DNA of 47,913 bases from an uncultured Methanosarcinales archaeon (GTDB lineage: Archaea; Nanobdellota; Nanobdellia; Woesearchaeales; CAZZGN01): the NCBI GenBank assembly GCA_964654165.1, contig CAZZGN010000001.1:1-47913 (forward strand), in the 5' to 3' direction. Made by a program: the position numbers and the translations under genes. Under the pieces are notes generated by a model. It saw nothing but the letters and a program-made list of their open reading frames with translations, did no database searches and had not been told where the DNA came from. Positions 6,346-43,967 of this stretch are shown piece after piece (position 1 is the first letter of the stretch; each line of letters starts with the position of its first letter).

Positions 6346-6543
6346 CTCTCACCAGCCCTTATTCAACAAGGAACCGACACAGCTATAGGACGAATGGACT
6401 AGCCCTTCATTCTTTCCTATGGCTATTATGCTTAGTTTCCAACTTAAAACTTGGATATATGAACCAAACCCCAATGGTTTATTCAACTATTTTACTAAAA
6501 TAAAAATAATATAATATTAAAATAAACCATAAGGAACTCAAGA

Positions 6544-9962: not shown

Positions 9963-11027
9963 ATGGAGAACAATATCATACTAGAAGGGGATGCAATAGC
10001 TGTCTTAAAAGACTTACCACCTAAGGCTATAGATACCTGTTGCACTTCCCCTCCCTACTTTCAACTCAGGGATTACAAGATAGCTAATCAATTAGGTGCA
10101 GAAGCAACTCCTGAAGAATACATCTCATCTCTGTGTAATATCTTCGATGAAGTAAAACGCATACTCAAACCCACTGGCTTATGCTTTGTTAATCTCGGTG
10201 ATACATACAACGGCACAAAGATAAAATCAATCCCTTACAAATCACTCATGCAAATTCCTGCTCGCTTTGCTCTTGAAATGACAAACAGAGGATGGACACT
10301 TCGTAATAAAATCATATGGTATAAACCAAATGCTATGCCTTCATCAACAACAGACCGTTTCAGTGTGGATTATGAAGAAATTTTTATGTTCTCTCAGTCC
10401 CCACAATATTTCTTTGAGCAACAAATAGAACCCTATATTTCAGAACCAAACCATACTCTTCATGATAAAGCAAGTGAAAAATACAAAGATACAGACCTCT
10501 TCTCAGAAGGTGGGCGTGATTATTACTCTCGTGGAGGAAGAAACAAGCGTTGTGTATGGACTATAAACACCAAACCTTATCCTGAAGCACACTTTGCAAC
10601 CTTTCCAGAAACCCTTATTGAACCAATAATCTCTTCTTCATGCCCTTCTAAAACCTGTTCTGCATGTGGTACTCCTTATGAAAAGAAATGGGAAATCACA
10701 AAGAAAGGTTCAGCAAAAGCAGTTCCCGAATATATGGAATCAATTGGTTCTTCTCTTTCTCATGCTCACACTCGTGAACGTGGTGCAATAATCCCAGACC
10801 AAAGAAAACTAATTGGATTAATCCCCTTATGCTCATGCCCAACTTCTACCCCCTCACAACCAGGCATAGTCTTAGACCCTTTCTTTGGCTCTGGTACAAC
10901 AGGACTTGTAGCTCTCAAACAAAACAAATCCTTTCTTGGAATTGAATTAAATCCAGAATACATAACTCTTGCTCAGAAACGACTTCATCCTTGGCTTAAC
11001 CAATCACGCTTAGGCTCATTCATATAA
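9963..11027 (+). CDS. DNA amino-methyltransferase, beta-class (N4-C or N6-A)
   Basis: Motif IV CCTSPPYFQL lies near the N-terminus and motif I VLDPFFGSGTTGLVA near the C-terminus. NLGDTY and IIWYKPN are typical of N6_N4_Mtase-type enzymes. An insertion of about 100 aa carries CPSKTCSACG. Confidence 0.8.
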   Translation: MENNIILEGDAIAVLKDLPPKAIDTCCTSPPYFQLRDYKIANQLGAEATPEEYISSLCNIFDEVKRILKPTGLCFVNLGDTYNGTKIKSIPYKSLMQIPARFALEMTNRGWTLRNKIIWYKPNAMPSSTTDRFSVDYEEIFMFSQSPQYFFEQQIEPYISEPNHTLHDKASEKYKDTDLFSEGGRDYYSRGGRNKRCVWTINTKPYPEAHFATFPETLIEPIISSSCPSKTCSACGTPYEKKWEITKKGSAKAVPEYMESIGSSLSHAHTRERGAIIPDQRKLIGLIPLCSCPTSTPSQPGIVLDPFFGSGTTGLVALKQNKSFLGIELNPEYITLAQKRLHPWLNQSRLGSFI

Positions 11028-11040
11028 CAATGGCTTACCT

Positions 11041-11190
11041 GACATACTCTCACCGCTAAAGCAGGTGAGGTTCTAAGGTTAACATCATTCATGTTAGAGC
11101 CTCCTTGGGCGTATCAGTGTAGCCCTTGAACATATCTCTGTCTACGTTCAATTGACCAATACTTACTTGACGATTTGCTATATTGAATGA
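11041..11190 (-). ncRNA. predicted omega (right-end) guide RNA scaffold of TnpB-1
   Basis: Inferred from the known TnpB architecture, in which the omega RNA spans the tnpB 3' end plus the RE. The RE hairpin at 11049-11069 is seen. The extent and guide (flank below about 11040) are not verified. Confidence 0.3.
11049..11069 (-). repeat. IS200/IS605 subterminal hairpin (RE of element 1)
   Basis: CTCACC / 9-nt loop / GGTGAG. It is identical over 21 nt, in element orientation, to the hairpin at 30892-30912. Confidence 0.75.
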
Positions 11191-12093
11191 AGCATTACTA
11201 TCAGCATGGTCAACGTGTTCACAATGTGGACACTTAAAATTTTTCCCATTTCGATTACCTAGATAGCCGCATATGCTACAGTTTTGGCTAGTGTATGCAG
11301 GTTCTATATAAGCTACTGCCACACCATTCAGCTTGGCTTTGTATTCTATAAACTGTCCTAGTTGATAGAATGACCAACTGTTTAAGGTATGGTTGAATGA
11401 GCGTGAATGCTTACGTGATTTGCGAATACCTTTTATAGCTTCTAGTTTTATGCCTTGTTTGTTCTTCTTGGCTACTTCTACAACATGCTTGCTTATCTTA
11501 TGGTTTAAGTCTTTGATTTTATTTGATTCTCGATGTTTAATCTTCTTAACCAATCCATATTTACCTTGCTTCTGTAATGTCTTCCTGATATGTTTGTATT
11601 TATTGTGAATATATCCAGCTTCTTTGCCCATCTTTTCAACCTTGCCCGTTTCAGGATTACCCATAACCGCTATATGCCCTGTTGCATTTAGGTCTATACC
11701 TAAATAAGAGTTTGGTTCTACCAACTCTACTTCAGGAACAGTTACGCTTATGAATGCATATTCTTTATTTAACTCAACTTGGTTGACCTTTGTGAAGTTA
11801 TCTACGGGTATATCAAGCTCAAGTTTTAGACAAGTCATAGTAATATGTGTATTATCAACATATATATGTTGATTAGGTATTATGAGATTAACTGAACTTG
11901 CCACCTTTGCTTTCTTATTCCTACCATATTTTCGTAATATTTGACAAGAGATTGCTGCTTTCAATCCTATGTGTTTTACATATTTGGTTGAAAGTTTATC
12001 ACGATTACTAATTGCAAACTTAGCTATCTTTTTAGCTTTTTTAAGTTCAGTTGTGAAGTCTCGATTATGCTTCACTTTGTATGTGAGTATCAT
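11089..12093 (-). CDS. tnpB: TnpB RNA-guided endonuclease (IS605 OrfB family)
   Basis: RuvC I GIDLNATG, RuvC II IKLEAIKG, zinc finger CSICG...CPHCEH and RuvC III HADSNASFNIA are all intact. The start is taken at ATG 12093 (MILTYKVKHN), which overlaps the tnpA TGA. Confidence 0.85.
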   Translation of the reverse strand: MILTYKVKHNRDFTTELKKAKKIAKFAISNRDKLSTKYVKHIGLKAAISCQILRKYGRNKKAKVASSVNLIIPNQHIYVDNTHITMTCLKLELDIPVDNFTKVNQVELNKEYAFISVTVPEVELVEPNSYLGIDLNATGHIAVMGNPETGKVEKMGKEAGYIHNKYKHIRKTLQKQGKYGLVKKIKHRESNKIKDLNHKISKHVVEVAKKNKQGIKLEAIKGIRKSRKHSRSFNHTLNSWSFYQLGQFIEYKAKLNGVAVAYIEPAYTSQNCSICGYLGNRNGKNFKCPHCEHVDHADSNASFNIANRQVSIGQLNVDRDMFKGYTDTPKEALT

Positions 12094-12500
12094 CTTTTTT
12101 GTTCTGATATATATCTTTTTACAACTTCTAAAGTTATTGCACCAACCGTTGATATGAATTTGGATTTTGTCCACAAACTAGGTAATCGCTTTTTTAGCTC
12201 TGGAAATTCTTCTCTAAGTGTATGAGAAGTATATCCTTTAATTCTTTGAACGATTTTATATATACCATCACGAGGGTTTACCTCAAGCAATAAATGTATA
12301 TGGTCTGGTAGTACTTCCATTTCCAAAACTTCATATTTATATTCGATTTGTTTCTCTAAAACAAGTTCCTTTAATCTATCGCCAACTTTATCAGCTAATA
12401 CTGGTCTACGATATTTTGGACAGAATATCACATGATACTGGCAAGAATATATTAATTTGTTATCGCTCTTATATCGTTTTGAGCTATTAAGTATTTCCAT
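12090..12500 (-). CDS. tnpA: IS200/IS605 Y1 (HUH) transposase TnpA
   Basis: YHVIFCPKYRR, the HUH motif DHIHLLL, LWTKSKFISTVG, and the catalytic-Tyr helix VVKRYISEQ. 136 aa. Confidence 0.9.
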   Translation of the reverse strand: MEILNSSKRYKSDNKLIYSCQYHVIFCPKYRRPVLADKVGDRLKELVLEKQIEYKYEVLEMEVLPDHIHLLLEVNPRDGIYKIVQRIKGYTSHTLREEFPELKKRLPSLWTKSKFISTVGAITLEVVKRYISEQKR

Positions 12501-12558
12501 ATCAATTATATTTAATAGTTTAGTAGTTTATTATATATAAAACAAGGAGACATGTAAA

Positions 12559-12888
12559 ATGACACCACCAAAGGACAAAGGACTTGAGAAGATTGTTGAT
12601 AAGTATTTTGAAAAATGGGAAGACCCACTTATATCTGGACAAGCAATTGTACTGAAAAGAGAACTTAGAAAAGCTCTAAAAGAAGCAAGAGACTATGGTG
12701 AGTCTAAAGGACATTGGGCAGTTTGGGAAGATGGAGAAGACAAAAAAGAGAATTATGAGTGCAAGTTTCATAGCAAGGAAAAGATAGTTACAGAGTATGT
12801 TCAAAATGGAATTAAACATCGTGAAATTATATTCTTTAAACTAAAACAACCTTCACTCTGGCAACGAATTAAAAGGAAATTAAAATGA
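12559..12888 (+). CDS. hypothetical protein
   Basis: 109-aa ORF with AAGGAGA 7 nt upstream of the ATG. Confidence 0.5.
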   Translation: MTPPKDKGLEKIVDKYFEKWEDPLISGQAIVLKRELRKALKEARDYGESKGHWAVWEDGEDKKENYECKFHSKEKIVTEYVQNGIKHREIIFFKLKQPSLWQRIKRKLK

Positions 12889-29288: not shown

Positions 29289-29834
29289 TCATTGTTTTTT
29301 GAATACAATAAAATATGCACTTTTACCAGTTCTCCAAATAAGTTCTTCCTCAGTATATGTACCATGCAGAGGACCGAAGGTTCTCTGTTTTCCTGTGTTT
29401 AAAAAATAATGCCGTAAGGCATTTGGTGGATACGGCTTAATATGTGAGAAATCTGTATAGAAATGTTCATTCATCATTGGTGTTCTGATAACAATAATAC
29501 CACCTGGTTTTACTAAGAAATCCATACAAGCCATTACTTTATGTGCATCTTCAGGAACCATGTGTTCAATTACATGCGAACAATAGACCCCATCAAATGA
29601 CTGCTTATCCATATCAAGTTTAAGATTCCTTATATCTCTTCTATAAACCTTATATCCCTCATTTTTAATCTGTTTAATACTATCATAATTCCAATCAAGT
29701 CCAGTTACAGTATCTTTATTAGGAAACATTTTTAGAAATGCACCTTCACCACAACCTAAGTCTAAAACGTTATCACAATTCTTTAACAAGACATATGCCC
29801 TTTCATCAATTTGTTCACGAGTAAATTCAATCAT
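29289..29834 (-). CDS. class I SAM-dependent methyltransferase
   Basis: Motif I VLDLGCGEGAF, FDGVYCSHVIEH and VKPGGIIVIRTP. Confidence 0.8.
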   Translation of the reverse strand: MIEFTREQIDERAYVLLKNCDNVLDLGCGEGAFLKMFPNKDTVTGLDWNYDSIKQIKNEGYKVYRRDIRNLKLDMDKQSFDGVYCSHVIEHMVPEDAHKVMACMDFLVKPGGIIVIRTPMMNEHFYTDFSHIKPYPPNALRHYFLNTGKQRTFGPLHGTYTEEELIWRTGKSAYFIVFKKQ

Positions 29835-30886
29835 TCTTTATAGACCTCCTTGTACGCCTTAATCAATTGAGGTAATACCGAAGTTTCTAAATCATGTACT
29901 TTGATAGCATAATTTCTTGCTTCTTTACCTATCTCAAATCTTAATTCTGGGTCCTCTTTTAAAGCAGTAATTGTATCTTCAAGTATAACTCTATCAGATA
30001 TAACAAAAGGTAATTCCTTACCATAACGTTCTACTGCAGCATCATAATATTGTTTATTAAGATTACATATACATGGGATACCCATCGAAGCAAACTCAGC
30101 AGTATTAACTCCATAATATCCCTGAAGGTGGTCAAATCCAACGTGACATCTTTGTTTCATCCAAAGACATTCTTCCCAAGGTGTATCAGTCATGAGTATT
30201 AGTCTCATATTCCTTTTTGACTTTGAATTAAGTACTTGAACAGACTTAGCAAGATAATCAGTATCTAACTGTTTTATACTAGGATTATAATCAACCTTAC
30301 CATGTTCTTGAAATATATCTTGAACTAAATCAGTATCCTTAATCTCCCATCTATGTACTTCTCCAGGTGCATGACCAACAGCAAAATAAGGGAACTTATC
30401 TTCAATAGGAATAGGCATAAATCTCGGGTCATTAGTAGGGATTGGAAATGGAAGCCATTCAGTCCTACACACTTCATCATCTAAGTAATCAAACATAATA
30501 GGCATAGTAACAAGAGTTTTATATTTATTCTCTTCTACCTCTTTTCTTATAGGTGGGGTTCTTCTGAATACTGTACCATGAAACTGCATTATAACTTTCT
30601 TACCTTGCTTAACATACTCTCTAAAATCAACATTACCTATTCCACAAGACGGTGGCCATATGTTAAAGTGAAGAATATCAGCCCAATCACACAATGCCCT
30701 AAGTTTTGTTTCATCAAGATTAGCATCCCATAAATATTCAAAAGGATATTCTCTTGTATTGAGATGACGAATAACAGAATGAGCTTCATGTTTAGTGTTA
30801 GCATTGATGGAATCACAGAGCATCTTACTAATTCCACATGTGTCCTCAGAATTAATGTTCAGGATGTTCATAATATCATATTGCAA
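29831..30886 (-). CDS. GT-B fold glycosyltransferase (GT1/GT4-like)
   Basis: The C-terminal YGVNTAEFASMGIPCICN...ALKEDPELRFEIGKEARNYA fits the E-x7-E region of GT4-type enzymes. The track start is TTG 30886, and the first ATG is 30871. The IS hairpin begins 6 nt upstream of the TTG. Confidence 0.6.
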   Translation of the reverse strand: MQYDIMNILNINSEDTCGISKMLCDSINANTKHEAHSVIRHLNTREYPFEYLWDANLDETKLRALCDWADILHFNIWPPSCGIGNVDFREYVKQGKKVIMQFHGTVFRRTPPIRKEVEENKYKTLVTMPIMFDYLDDEVCRTEWLPFPIPTNDPRFMPIPIEDKFPYFAVGHAPGEVHRWEIKDTDLVQDIFQEHGKVDYNPSIKQLDTDYLAKSVQVLNSKSKRNMRLILMTDTPWEECLWMKQRCHVGFDHLQGYYGVNTAEFASMGIPCICNLNKQYYDAAVERYGKELPFVISDRVILEDTITALKEDPELRFEIGKEARNYAIKVHDLETSVLPQLIKAYKEVYKE

Positions 30887-30891
30887 GGAAA

Positions 30892-30912
30892 CTCACCTGC
30901 TTTAGCGGTGAG
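30892..30912 (+). repeat. IS200/IS605 subterminal hairpin (LE of element 2)
   Basis: CTCACC-TGCTTTAGC-GGTGAG, identical to the element-1 RE hairpin read in element orientation. Confidence 0.7.
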
Positions 30913-30975
30913 AGGAATTGCAATGTTGCCCTTTAATGAGTTTTTATACTTAGTATTGCTAACTAATGAATATAA

Positions 30976-32046
30976 ATGAAACGAGCTATTAAACTGGTCT
31001 TGCCCTACGACAAGCGTGTTGCCAAGACAGTTATCACCTACAACAAAGCCTGTAACTTCATTATGAAACGAGGTTACGAGCTGGGGACTTTCAACAAGCT
31101 CAAGCTCCACCATGCCACTTATAAGGAAACTCGTAAGCGGTTTCCCAATCTTACAAGTAGTCTTGTTTGTGCTGCTCGTGACCAAGCCAGTGATATGCTC
31201 AAGCGAGAAAAGCTCGAAATTCTCCCCGTCAAAAAAGAGTTCTCTTCCATCCGATACAATTTGAGAACTTTCCATCTCTACCTTGACAAAGGTATTATAA
31301 CTTTGTCCACGTTGTTTGGTCGTATCAAGCTTCCAATTACAATCCCTGCCCACTTTAAACCATATATCTCTTGGAGAATTGCAGGGACAACCCTCAGCAT
31401 CAAGAATGGTAAAATTATACTCAATCTTATTGCCGAAACTGATGACCCCGACAAGCTCGCCATCACTAAAGCAATCGGTATTGACCGAGGAATCATTAAC
31501 CCAGTCGTCACAAACGATGCTCAATTTTTTAACAGCCGAGAACTTCGTGCTGTCAAAGGTAAATATCAGTGGCTTAAATCGCAACTGCAAAGTAAAGGCA
31601 CTCGTTCCGCAAAGAGGCATCTTAAAGCTCTCAGTGGAAGAGAAAATCGGTTTGTTAGAGATGTGAACCACTGTATCAGTAAGCAAATAGCTACTAGCGA
31701 TGCTCAACTCTTCGTTCTCGAAAAGTTGCACATTAAGCGTAAAAAAAAGAATGGAAGGCGATTCAATAAGCTCTTGGGTAACTGGAGCTATATGCAATTC
31801 GAGCAGTTCCTCACCTACAAAGCTGACGCTTTGGGAAAAACTATCGAGCACATCAATCCCAAATATACCAGTCAGACTTGTAGTGCTTGCGGACAAATCC
31901 GAAAAGCTAATCGTAAAGGTGTTTGGTATTCCTGTAACAATTGCGGACAAACTATTAACTCCGACCTTAACGCTGCTAGAAACATCGTTGCTTTGAGCAA
32001 GTTCTTTAAGCAACAGGTTGCTGTCAACCAGCCAATCGTGACATGA
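30976..32046 (+). CDS. tnpB: TnpB RNA-guided endonuclease (IS605 OrfB family)
   Basis: RuvC I AIGIDRGI, RuvC II FVLEKLH, zinc finger CSACG...CNNCGQ and RuvC III NSDLNAARNI. 356 aa. It is a distinct lineage from TnpB-1. Confidence 0.85.
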   Translation: MKRAIKLVLPYDKRVAKTVITYNKACNFIMKRGYELGTFNKLKLHHATYKETRKRFPNLTSSLVCAARDQASDMLKREKLEILPVKKEFSSIRYNLRTFHLYLDKGIITLSTLFGRIKLPITIPAHFKPYISWRIAGTTLSIKNGKIILNLIAETDDPDKLAITKAIGIDRGIINPVVTNDAQFFNSRELRAVKGKYQWLKSQLQSKGTRSAKRHLKALSGRENRFVRDVNHCISKQIATSDAQLFVLEKLHIKRKKKNGRRFNKLLGNWSYMQFEQFLTYKADALGKTIEHINPKYTSQTCSACGQIRKANRKGVWYSCNNCGQTINSDLNAARNIVALSKFFKQQVAVNQPIVT

Positions 32047-32096
32047 ATTTATTTTCATAGTTACAAGCTCACCTCTTTAGGGGTGAGAAGTTGACA
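31950..32096 (+). ncRNA. predicted omega guide RNA scaffold of TnpB-2
   Basis: Inferred from the TnpB paradigm. The RE hairpin CTCACC-TCTTTAGG-GGTGAG at 32068-32087 is followed by AAGTTGACA. The extent is not verified. Confidence 0.3.
32068..32087 (+). repeat. IS200/IS605 subterminal hairpin (RE of element 2)
   Basis: Same 6-bp stem as the other two hairpins, with a different 8-nt loop. Confidence 0.65.
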
Positions 32097-32134
32097 ACTA
32101 CTTTAGATAATACTTTAATAAAAATAAAATGCTA

Positions 32135-32569
32135 TTATATTATAATAAAGTATGGATGTACATCATAATCAACTATTTTATTTGTCTGCGGTTCAACGTA
32201 AACTAAGTCTCCATAAGGTAATATAACAACATTAAGCATATGAGTCCCAGCATTAAGCTTAACAGCCGCCTCTCCGACAGCAATATTGCCAAATAATATA
32301 TGAAGAGTAGCAGAAGCAGTTCGTGCATAATCATCACAATCGTATTCGTTTTTCCTAAATTTTAACAATTTCAAAGCATTACTTTTGAATAATCTTTCTA
32401 TGTCACCATATGCAGGAGCAATATAGCTGTCATCAGTAACAAAATAATCTTTTACACCTGCACTCTTGATAGCTTTCCTAACATCATCGCTAAGAATAGT
32501 CGTAAAGTCTATGTCTTTCTGCATAAACAAACGCCTAAAGGCGTTAAAATTTAGTTGCATATTAAACAT
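32135..32569 (-). CDS. putative papain/transglutaminase-fold Cys peptidase-like protein
   Basis: EYDCDDYARTASATL ... AGTHMLNVVI ... VYVEPQT gives a possible Cys / His / acidic triad spacing. This is a weak call. Confidence 0.3.
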   Translation of the reverse strand: MFNMQLNFNAFRRLFMQKDIDFTTILSDDVRKAIKSAGVKDYFVTDDSYIAPAYGDIERLFKSNALKLLKFRKNEYDCDDYARTASATLHILFGNIAVGEAAVKLNAGTHMLNVVILPYGDLVYVEPQTNKIVDYDVHPYFIII

Positions 32570-43744: not shown

Positions 43745-43967
43745 TAATAGTTTATCCACCTTACATTTAAAAACAGAAAAGCCGACTCGCTTTTATATAG
43801 TAACACTTTTAAATACCTCACTCCGTTCGGTAAAAGGATAATAAGACGGTGTTAATGTGTGTTTGTAAAAACGAAATGTGTTTGGGTACGTACGTTTTGG
43901 TGTGGATATTATAATATTATAATAAAAAATAAATAATATAATATTGGAATAAGGTATAGGGGTATAA

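Follow-up and report, generated by a model that had tools for sequence, protein, structure and literature searches.

The question raised by this locus is how a transposon encoding a TnpB, a putative RNA-guided nuclease, comes to lie backwards in a viral late operon, directly against the start codon of a glycosyltransferase-like (GT) gene, and what such an insertion does to the genes that follow it. The stretch analysed (the window) is a whole 47.9-kb contig, C1, of a 1.4-Mb bin that is 83% complete, and it belongs to an uncultured archaeal tailed virus. It holds two such transposons: element 2, the subject of this analysis, which occupies 30872-32095 on the plus strand (1,224 bp), carries tnpB no. 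2 and has no tnpA, and element 1 (11039-12500, minus strand), which carries tnpA and tnpB no. 1. An earlier reading, made from the sequence alone (the sequence-only reading), had remarked that element 2 points against its surroundings, and it does indeed lie on the plus strand amid minus-strand late genes. The explanation that we consider probable as a whole is that element 2 is a tnpA-less IS605-type element, inserted next to a YCAT word, whose antisense strand carries a stop-free frame that bridges the insertion.

That element 2 is a solo-tnpB member of the IS200/IS605 family (IS605-type) with the ends given here is almost certain. The DNA of relatives was fetched at 30-72% protein identity to TnpB no. 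2 (loci labelled L###), and in 17 independent insertions among them the homology begins at a YCAT word while the flanks all differ; YCAT is present at 17/17 of these insertion sites, and in the window it reads TCAT (30868-30871, plus strand), the probable transposon-associated motif (TAM). The left end (LE, 30872-30924, plus strand) consists of a spacer (30872-30879), an outer stem pairing 30880-30886 with 30918-30924, and an inner hairpin at 30892-30912. This two-storey (bipartite) stem-loop has 16 consensus pairs, 15 of them with compensatory changes (RNAalifold, 17 relatives), and as DNA it folds at -11.1 kcal/mol (z-score -3.4). The left boundary, which had been placed at the hairpin itself, is accordingly moved outwards to about 30872 so as to include the outer stem. 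The right end (RE, 32056-32095, plus strand) carries a subterminal hairpin (32068-32087) and the terminal word GTTGAC; its conserved word, its hairpin with covarying stem and the terminal GTTGAC are common to ~40 relatives. Where the same element is found at different sites (L020/21/22 and L025-28) the sequences diverge directly after GTTGAC, and the right end in the window is therefore placed at 32095. Conservation of both ends in other copies gives the element the boundaries expected of an insertion sequence. The hairpins with the stem CTCACC/GGTGAG that were said to flank it are confirmed at the inner LE and the RE positions; together with a third at 11049-11069 they make three matches against 0.01 expected, and no further hairpin with this stem occurs elsewhere in the 1.4-Mb bin. 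By eye, an inverted repeat at the two tips is absent, and no repeated word flanks element 2, that is, no target duplication is visible.

The target word and the left end also vary together. A T at the head of YCAT goes with an A placed 3 nt before the inner hairpin, and a C with a G (15 sites tabulated; L017 and L022, read by eye from their flanks, also fit), a pattern implying what would be at least two independent switches. It looks like the DNA-guided choice of cleavage site of IS608, in which the site is reportedly chosen by the DNA next to the hairpin.

Between these ends lies a gene that has kept every residue expected of a nuclease. The open reading frame (ORF) of tnpB no. 2 (30976-32046, plus strand, 356 aa) matches the Pfam families OrfB_IS605 (32.3 bits, cut-off 30.5) and Cas12f1-like_TNB (78.8 bits, cut-off 26.3). 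The RuvC and zinc-finger motifs had been called intact, and the RuvC residues D170, E249 and D330 and the zinc-ribbon cysteines C302, C305, C320 and C323 prove invariant across 16 sequences (TnpB no. 2 and 15 aligned homologues), with no sign of misalignment. TnpB no. 2 matches solved TnpB and Cas12f chains including ISDra2 TnpB, and its motifs align with theirs, though similarity to ISDra2 TnpB is weak (E 1.3e-8). It is apparently an active nuclease. Its named homologues are mostly from DPANN archaea, Thermoplasmatota and methanogens, and its nearest relative is 72% identical. Upstream of the gene, a TATA-like box ~31 nt before the ATG and a conserved word just before the start (30941-30968, plus strand) recur at equal spacing in L017, L018, L020-22, L024 and L099, and are the probable tnpB promoter. 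In many relatives (L020-22, L030, L033, L035, L046, L099 and L121) the TnpB frame continues through the RE hairpin and stops at the TGA of the terminal GTTGAC, the last 10-15 residues of the protein being encoded by the transposon end; tnpB no. 2 of the window ends 49 nt earlier than such a terminal-word stop.

The right end has, in addition, the features of an omega-RNA scaffold. When 36 relatives are aligned over the 170 nt that precede their right ends, the consensus structure has 30 pairs, 21 of them compensatory; 94.1% of cells are paired, against 27-49% with the partners slid, and the covariation score is 0.562 against 0.06-0.12, the shuffle and slide controls being clear. The corresponding omega-RNA-like scaffold in the window (31988-32095, plus strand, start approximate) is built of helices 31988-92/32008-12, 32023-28/32090-95, 32038-45/32056-64 and 32067-76/32079-88, the last of which is the RE hairpin, and one helix pairs a word within the coding region with the terminal GTTGAC. 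Folded as a single RNA sequence, the scaffold has a z-score of -3.1. No Rfam family reaches its gathering score for the RNA of the window, and only noise appears at E values up to 10. The structure fits an omega RNA that would end at 32095 and comprise the terminal ~110 nt of element 2. Its guide would then be read from the viral DNA just to the right, at 32096-32115 on the plus strand, a position that we take by analogy with the ISDra2 omega RNA, with a length assumed to be 16-20 nt; the first 16 nt of this predicted guide match only their own place in the bin.

The site chosen by element 2 is the start codon of the GT gene. The sequence-only reading had measured the left hairpin at 6 nt from a TTG (30886) and 21 nt from the first ATG (30871) of that gene, distances that are correct, and had concluded that the native translation-initiation region was replaced. 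This conclusion is not supported: the start codon is native, and what originally lay upstream of it now stands 1,224 bp away. All 11 homologues of the GT protein (54-81% identical) begin at residues encoded from ATG 30871, and the gene therefore retains its own ATG, read on the other strand as the CAT in the target word TCAT. The listed GT ORF opens with element sequence, namely the TTG and the four codons that follow it. With its start corrected from the ORF, Pfam matches and homologue starts, the gene occupies 29831-30871 on the minus strand and encodes 346 aa. Its start has been called variously: an identical public cluster (P0121) begins at an internal Met and has 330 aa, and the mechanical ORF begins at the TTG in the transposon.

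Start codons on the opposite strand appear to be a recurrent target of the family. We rebuilt the empty sites from the flanks of the 17 independent insertions, and in 9/17 an opposite-strand ORF of at least 69 aa has its first ATG at the target CAT; for all YCAT words of the same DNA the null is 8.5% (P 3e-6). This test replaced one with a looser null, any opposite-strand ORF of at least 42 aa, which gave 35% and P 0.011. Several rebuilt sites have a TATA-like box ~25-30 nt upstream; at others an upstream gene's stop codon abuts the ATG. Insertion would accordingly occur 3' of YCAT, which in about half of the independent insertions, as here, is the start codon of an opposite-strand gene, and since the target word is that start codon the element lies backwards between the GT upstream region and the GT ATG.

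An insertion so placed might be expected to silence what lies downstream, and the sequence-only reading had proposed a polar effect on the GT gene. The antisense strand of element 2 suggests otherwise, and the family seems built to avoid polarity. A codon-registered antisense frame of 396 codons (30868-32058, minus strand) begins with an ATG 37 nt inside the RE, crosses the element without a stop and ends in a TGA that overlaps the GT start as ATGA. The frame is open because tnpB no. 2 uses none of TTA, CTA or TCA, at 0/34 Leu and 0/21 Ser codons; its own third-position use predicts 13.0 antisense stops (P 2e-6). By comparison, tnpB no. 1 has 20 such codons, and in the rest of the virus they account for 5.6% of all codons. 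At P<4e-3 ~26 relatives show the depletion, while ~40 of similar G+C have the expected counts, and only the in-register antisense frame is affected: it has 0.37 stops per 100 codons, the figure for closed relatives being 3.98. The frame is open in 24/63 relatives from several deep lineages, and on a quick tree the open/closed label changes 7 times, compared with 19 when shuffled. It also extends beyond tnpB: in L033, L038 and L041-43 it stays open across tnpA in a different frame, for 476-500 codons and with no Pfam domain, and in L020-22 it runs in phase into tnpA. The antisense stop falls within -15 to +49 nt of the boundary in 13/15 open elements with a mapped LE, and the ATGA overlap with a flanking ATG is found in the window and in L120. 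Among the closed members of the open clade are very AT-rich copies and others in which no LE can be recognised. The latter, L097, L098 and L099, are the nearest relatives with a closed frame; the RE hairpin of L097 and L098 is degenerate, and the three have the look of stranded copies with a decayed antisense frame and a tnpB that remains open.

We are quite confident that selection has kept this frame open, judging from the codon usage of the window and its relatives. As to purpose, we lean, by a modest degree, towards a bridge for ribosomes. Archaeal polarity is attributed to FttA, likely acting on untranslated RNA, and NTGA is the commonest coupling motif between adjacent cistrons, coupling fading beyond 30-40 nt (PMC12548453). 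The bin encodes a Beta-CASP protein, the family to which FttA belongs. Viral late transcription would enter element 2 at its right end; ribosomes would start at the ATG inside the RE, translate the stop-free frame across the element, terminate on the ATGA at the GT start and re-initiate there, and the insertion would thereby cost the virus little. TnpB with its omega RNA would meanwhile cut sibling genomes that lack the insertion, at TCAT followed by a match to the guide, and the element would be retained. Whether an archaeal IS605-type TnpB branch as a whole is built in this manner, to land on opposite-strand start codons (often of a leaderless gene) with a stop-free antisense frame as an anti-polarity device, is in our estimate evenly poised. 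Literature searches for an antisense or bridging frame in TnpB or IS605 elements returned nothing relevant.

The same open frame might instead be a real second gene, with a 396-aa product that regulates, for example, transposition or TnpB. Selection for openness is clear under this explanation too, an ATG just inside the RE is conserved in the window, L017, L018, L020-22 and L106, and in L020-22 the frame continues in phase into a Y1 transposase domain (residues 386-505 of 515). However, the antisense product has no Pfam domain, its start shifts by ~100-130 nt in the L03x/L04x group, and beyond tnpB the frame differs by lineage, L020-22 sharing the phase of tnpA and L041-43 reading a different one; openness is what is conserved there, not a protein sequence, and we regard a second gene as improbable. 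Still less probable is that the frame is a functionless by-product of the codon usage of the donor, the insertion being an ordinary and possibly polar one that the virus tolerates. The in-register antisense frame is the one that codon bias most easily leaves open, G+C-rich relatives such as L126 and L106 expect only ~8 stops, and closed relatives seem to do well. Against this, the depletion survives correction for the third-position A use of each gene, in the window as in the ~26 depleted loci; the ~40 relatives of equal G+C show the stop counts expected of them; members at a G+C of 0.38-0.42 are still open; and the frame is open outside tnpB too, through the LE and across tnpA in another frame.

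It is important to note that several observations weigh against the ribosome bridge and the wider explanation of element 2 in which it stands. L024-28 and L097-99 lie inside the open clade and are closed, which makes the frame dispensable, and the open frame of L020-22 and L104 just shares its phase with tnpA, which could have a meaning other than a bridge. From the stop of the upstream 144-aa gene to the bridge ATG is a distance of 76 nt, outside the measured coupling range, and the sole Shine-Dalgarno-like word available to it lies within the RE hairpin. None of the listed sequencing runs that contain DNA of the window is an RNA run. The YCAT motif is a predicted TAM and the guide length an assumed one. 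No empty site, second copy or excision joint was found in the bin, IMG/VR, the genomes of the same order or the run contigs, and present mobility of element 2 is without support from any of these; moreover, the resident TnpA, that of element 1, is only 28-34% identical to the TnpAs that accompany the TnpB no. 2 family.

The history of the element is easier to read than its present state. In full relatives, tnpA, a Y1 transposase gene, lies on the other strand between the LE and tnpB, an interval of ~480-530 nt; the interval is 108-111 nt in the window and L018 and ~120 nt in L017. No tnpA is present in the 108 nt of element 2, and in these three copies the LE is joined to the conserved TATA-like tnpB promoter. 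From this shortened interval, element 2 reads as a tnpA-deletion derivative, a non-autonomous IS605-type member that has lost tnpA between the LE and the tnpB promoter. Among close relatives, one element is found at three sites (L020-22) and another at four (L025-28). The bin holds one copy of element 2. A search of sequencing runs found DNA of the window in salt-lake metagenomes, and four further salt-lake DNA runs carry the virus with the insertion; contigs of X3 and X4 bridge the left junction and contigs of X3 the right one, and none shows a joint that skips the element, at a depth of 3-5 from which rare empty sites could escape notice and with uncovered stretches that carry no information. 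In run X5 two contigs end at 30880 and 32096, beside both element boundaries; these ends may be chance or an assembly-graph fork and give no evidence for an empty site.

Movement of element 2 would need a TnpA in trans, for which the TnpA of element 1, the only one of the bin, is a possible helper. In element 1 (minus strand) tnpA occupies 12090-12500 and tnpB no. 1 11089-12174, and the RE hairpin lies at 11049-11069; relatives end in a hairpin followed by a fixed 10-nt tip, and the RE tip of element 1 is therefore placed at 11039. The element belongs to another branch, in keeping with the earlier claim that two different TnpBs ride in one virus: TnpB no. 1 and no. 2 are 34% identical over half their length, the C-terminal halves. 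The left ends of its relatives follow TTAC and have AAAG before the hairpin, as in IS608. In IMG/VR contigs (L153-L175 and L142-L146) TTAC stands ~17-19 nt before an AGAAAG-hairpin LE and the fixed 10-nt tip follows the RE hairpin, and the relatives of element 1 in uncultured viral contigs thus have an IS608-like grammar. Element 1 itself has no LE: with up to 3 mismatches allowed, its 21-nt hairpin word does not occur a third time, 12500-12640 shows no structure, and the unstructured 140 nt upstream of tnpA lead into an ORF at 12559-12888. The only transposase of the bin therefore probably sits in an element that is itself unable to move. The predicted guide of element 1 would overlap the stop region of a DNA methylase gene ending at 11027.

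The link between the two elements is a shared hairpin. As the sequence-only reading had observed, the 21-nt left hairpin of element 2 is identical, in element orientation, to the RE hairpin of element 1, and the match extends to 26/27 nt. Its apical part is typical of the branch of element 1, which suggests that the identity came about by sequence exchange or co-adaptation; on the strength of the hairpin, the resident TnpA is likely to bind. An inversion that swapped the left ends of the two elements was considered and rejected, as the late genes would then no longer be co-oriented, and outside its inner hairpin the LE of element 2 has the sequence of the element's own TnpB family (L018). The proposal that the single TnpA mobilises element 2 in trans is, then, mechanistically plausible in view of the identical hairpin and weakened by the divergence of that TnpA from its counterparts and by the missing LE of element 1; we would put it somewhat short of even.

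It is also conceivable that element 2 is stranded or domesticated, with no usable TnpA, and that the virus keeps its TnpB as a weapon, directed for instance at co-infecting relatives without the insertion. The single copy in the bin and the distance of the nearest relative are in line with this, as are the presence of the insertion in the four other salt-lake runs, where contigs bridge both junctions and no joint skips the element, the loss of the LE of element 1 and the divergence of the resident TnpA. On the other side, the ends, target word and guide position are exactly as in mobile relatives, the predicted guide, like that of a selfish element, has no match beyond its own flank, and the inner LE hairpin is identical to a hairpin of the resident TnpA's own element. 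In IS608 it is DNA-DNA pairing in cis, and not the protein, that selects the cleavage site, which also counts against stranding, and contigs at such depth leave room for rare empty sites. On balance we think a stranded or domesticated element rather unlikely. A related suggestion, that high G+C marks a recent acquisition, is unsupported. The excess itself is real but modest: G+C is 0.415 in element 2, 0.34 and 0.37 in its flanks and 0.363 in the window (standard deviation 0.035 for windows of that size, 6% of which reach the value of element 2). It is uninformative as to age, and the 72% identity of the nearest relative, the single copy and the presence of the insertion in other salt-lake runs lend no support to a recent arrival.

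Set beside known systems, element 2 resembles IS605 and IS608 of Helicobacter pylori in its subterminal imperfect hairpins at both ends, the lack of terminal inverted repeats and of junction duplication, insertion 3' of a fixed tetranucleotide, and a base 5' of the LE hairpin that covaries with the target word; its full relatives have divergent tnpA and tnpB as in IS605, and in element 1 and its relatives TTAC and AAAG have exactly the roles they have in IS608. It differs in having no tnpA, in its YCAT target, two-storey LE and conserved stop-free antisense frame, and in its hosts, which are archaea for the family and a tailed virus for the copy in the window. With IS1341-type solo tnpB transposons and ISDra2 TnpB (PDB 8exa, 8h1j) it shares a TnpB-only organisation, the RuvC triad and the zinc ribbon, as well as a structured RNA predicted from the 3' end of tnpB and the RE, a guide from the flank and a TAM expected to equal the target word; unlike ISDra2, it is only distantly similar in sequence and has no Rfam match, and its TAM and activity are predicted. 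The proposed bridge has its model in termination-reinitiation at NTGA overlaps (Huber et al. 2019, 2023, reviewed in PMC12548453): the antisense frame ends in ATGA on the GT start, and the GT gene, a coupled methyltransferase gene and a GT2 gene downstream of it are chained likewise. What sets it apart is that the upstream cistron would be a 396-codon frame antisense to a transposon gene, seemingly kept only for its openness.

The original promoter of the interrupted operon may have been left on the far side of the insertion. A candidate for this native GT-operon promoter, now displaced, is an AT-rich, TATA-like word (32113-32124, minus strand) that stands 19-30 nt upstream of the RE tip. The word belongs to repeat family D7, a 55-nt AT-rich intergenic repeat found at 6480-6534, 32103-32157 and 43907-43961, of which one copy directly adjoins the right end of element 2 and which may be a viral terminator and promoter module. 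A simple AT-rich pattern derived from D7 is not more frequent than chance, and the displaced promoter is still conjectural. Searches for relatives of the virus found little: the DNA of the window had no match in INPHARED, IMG/VR held no hit for the GT protein or its alignment, nor did 300 genomes of the same order for the GT protein, and a search with the capsid protein found one distant virus (L178, 44% identity).

A solo TnpB element in an archaeal virus is in itself an ordinary member of a very common family. What the present analysis adds is a definition, from covariation, of the target word, both ends and the omega-RNA scaffold of this family, and with it a testable predicted TAM (YCAT) and guide for a compact 356-aa archaeal TnpB. 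There is also a consequence for annotation, in that such antisense frames, and false upstream starts such as the TTG here, are mis-called. More broadly, start-codon targeting, taken together with an antisense frame that spans the transposon and is under selection, suggests that an insertion sequence can evolve so as to cancel the polarity it would otherwise cause, which bears on how transposons persist in gene-dense genomes and viruses. If this is true, a host or viral promoter would drive ribosomes across the insertion into the interrupted gene, and a built-in anti-polarity device would let a selfish RNA-guided nuclease sit cheaply in essential operons, here the late operon of a virus.

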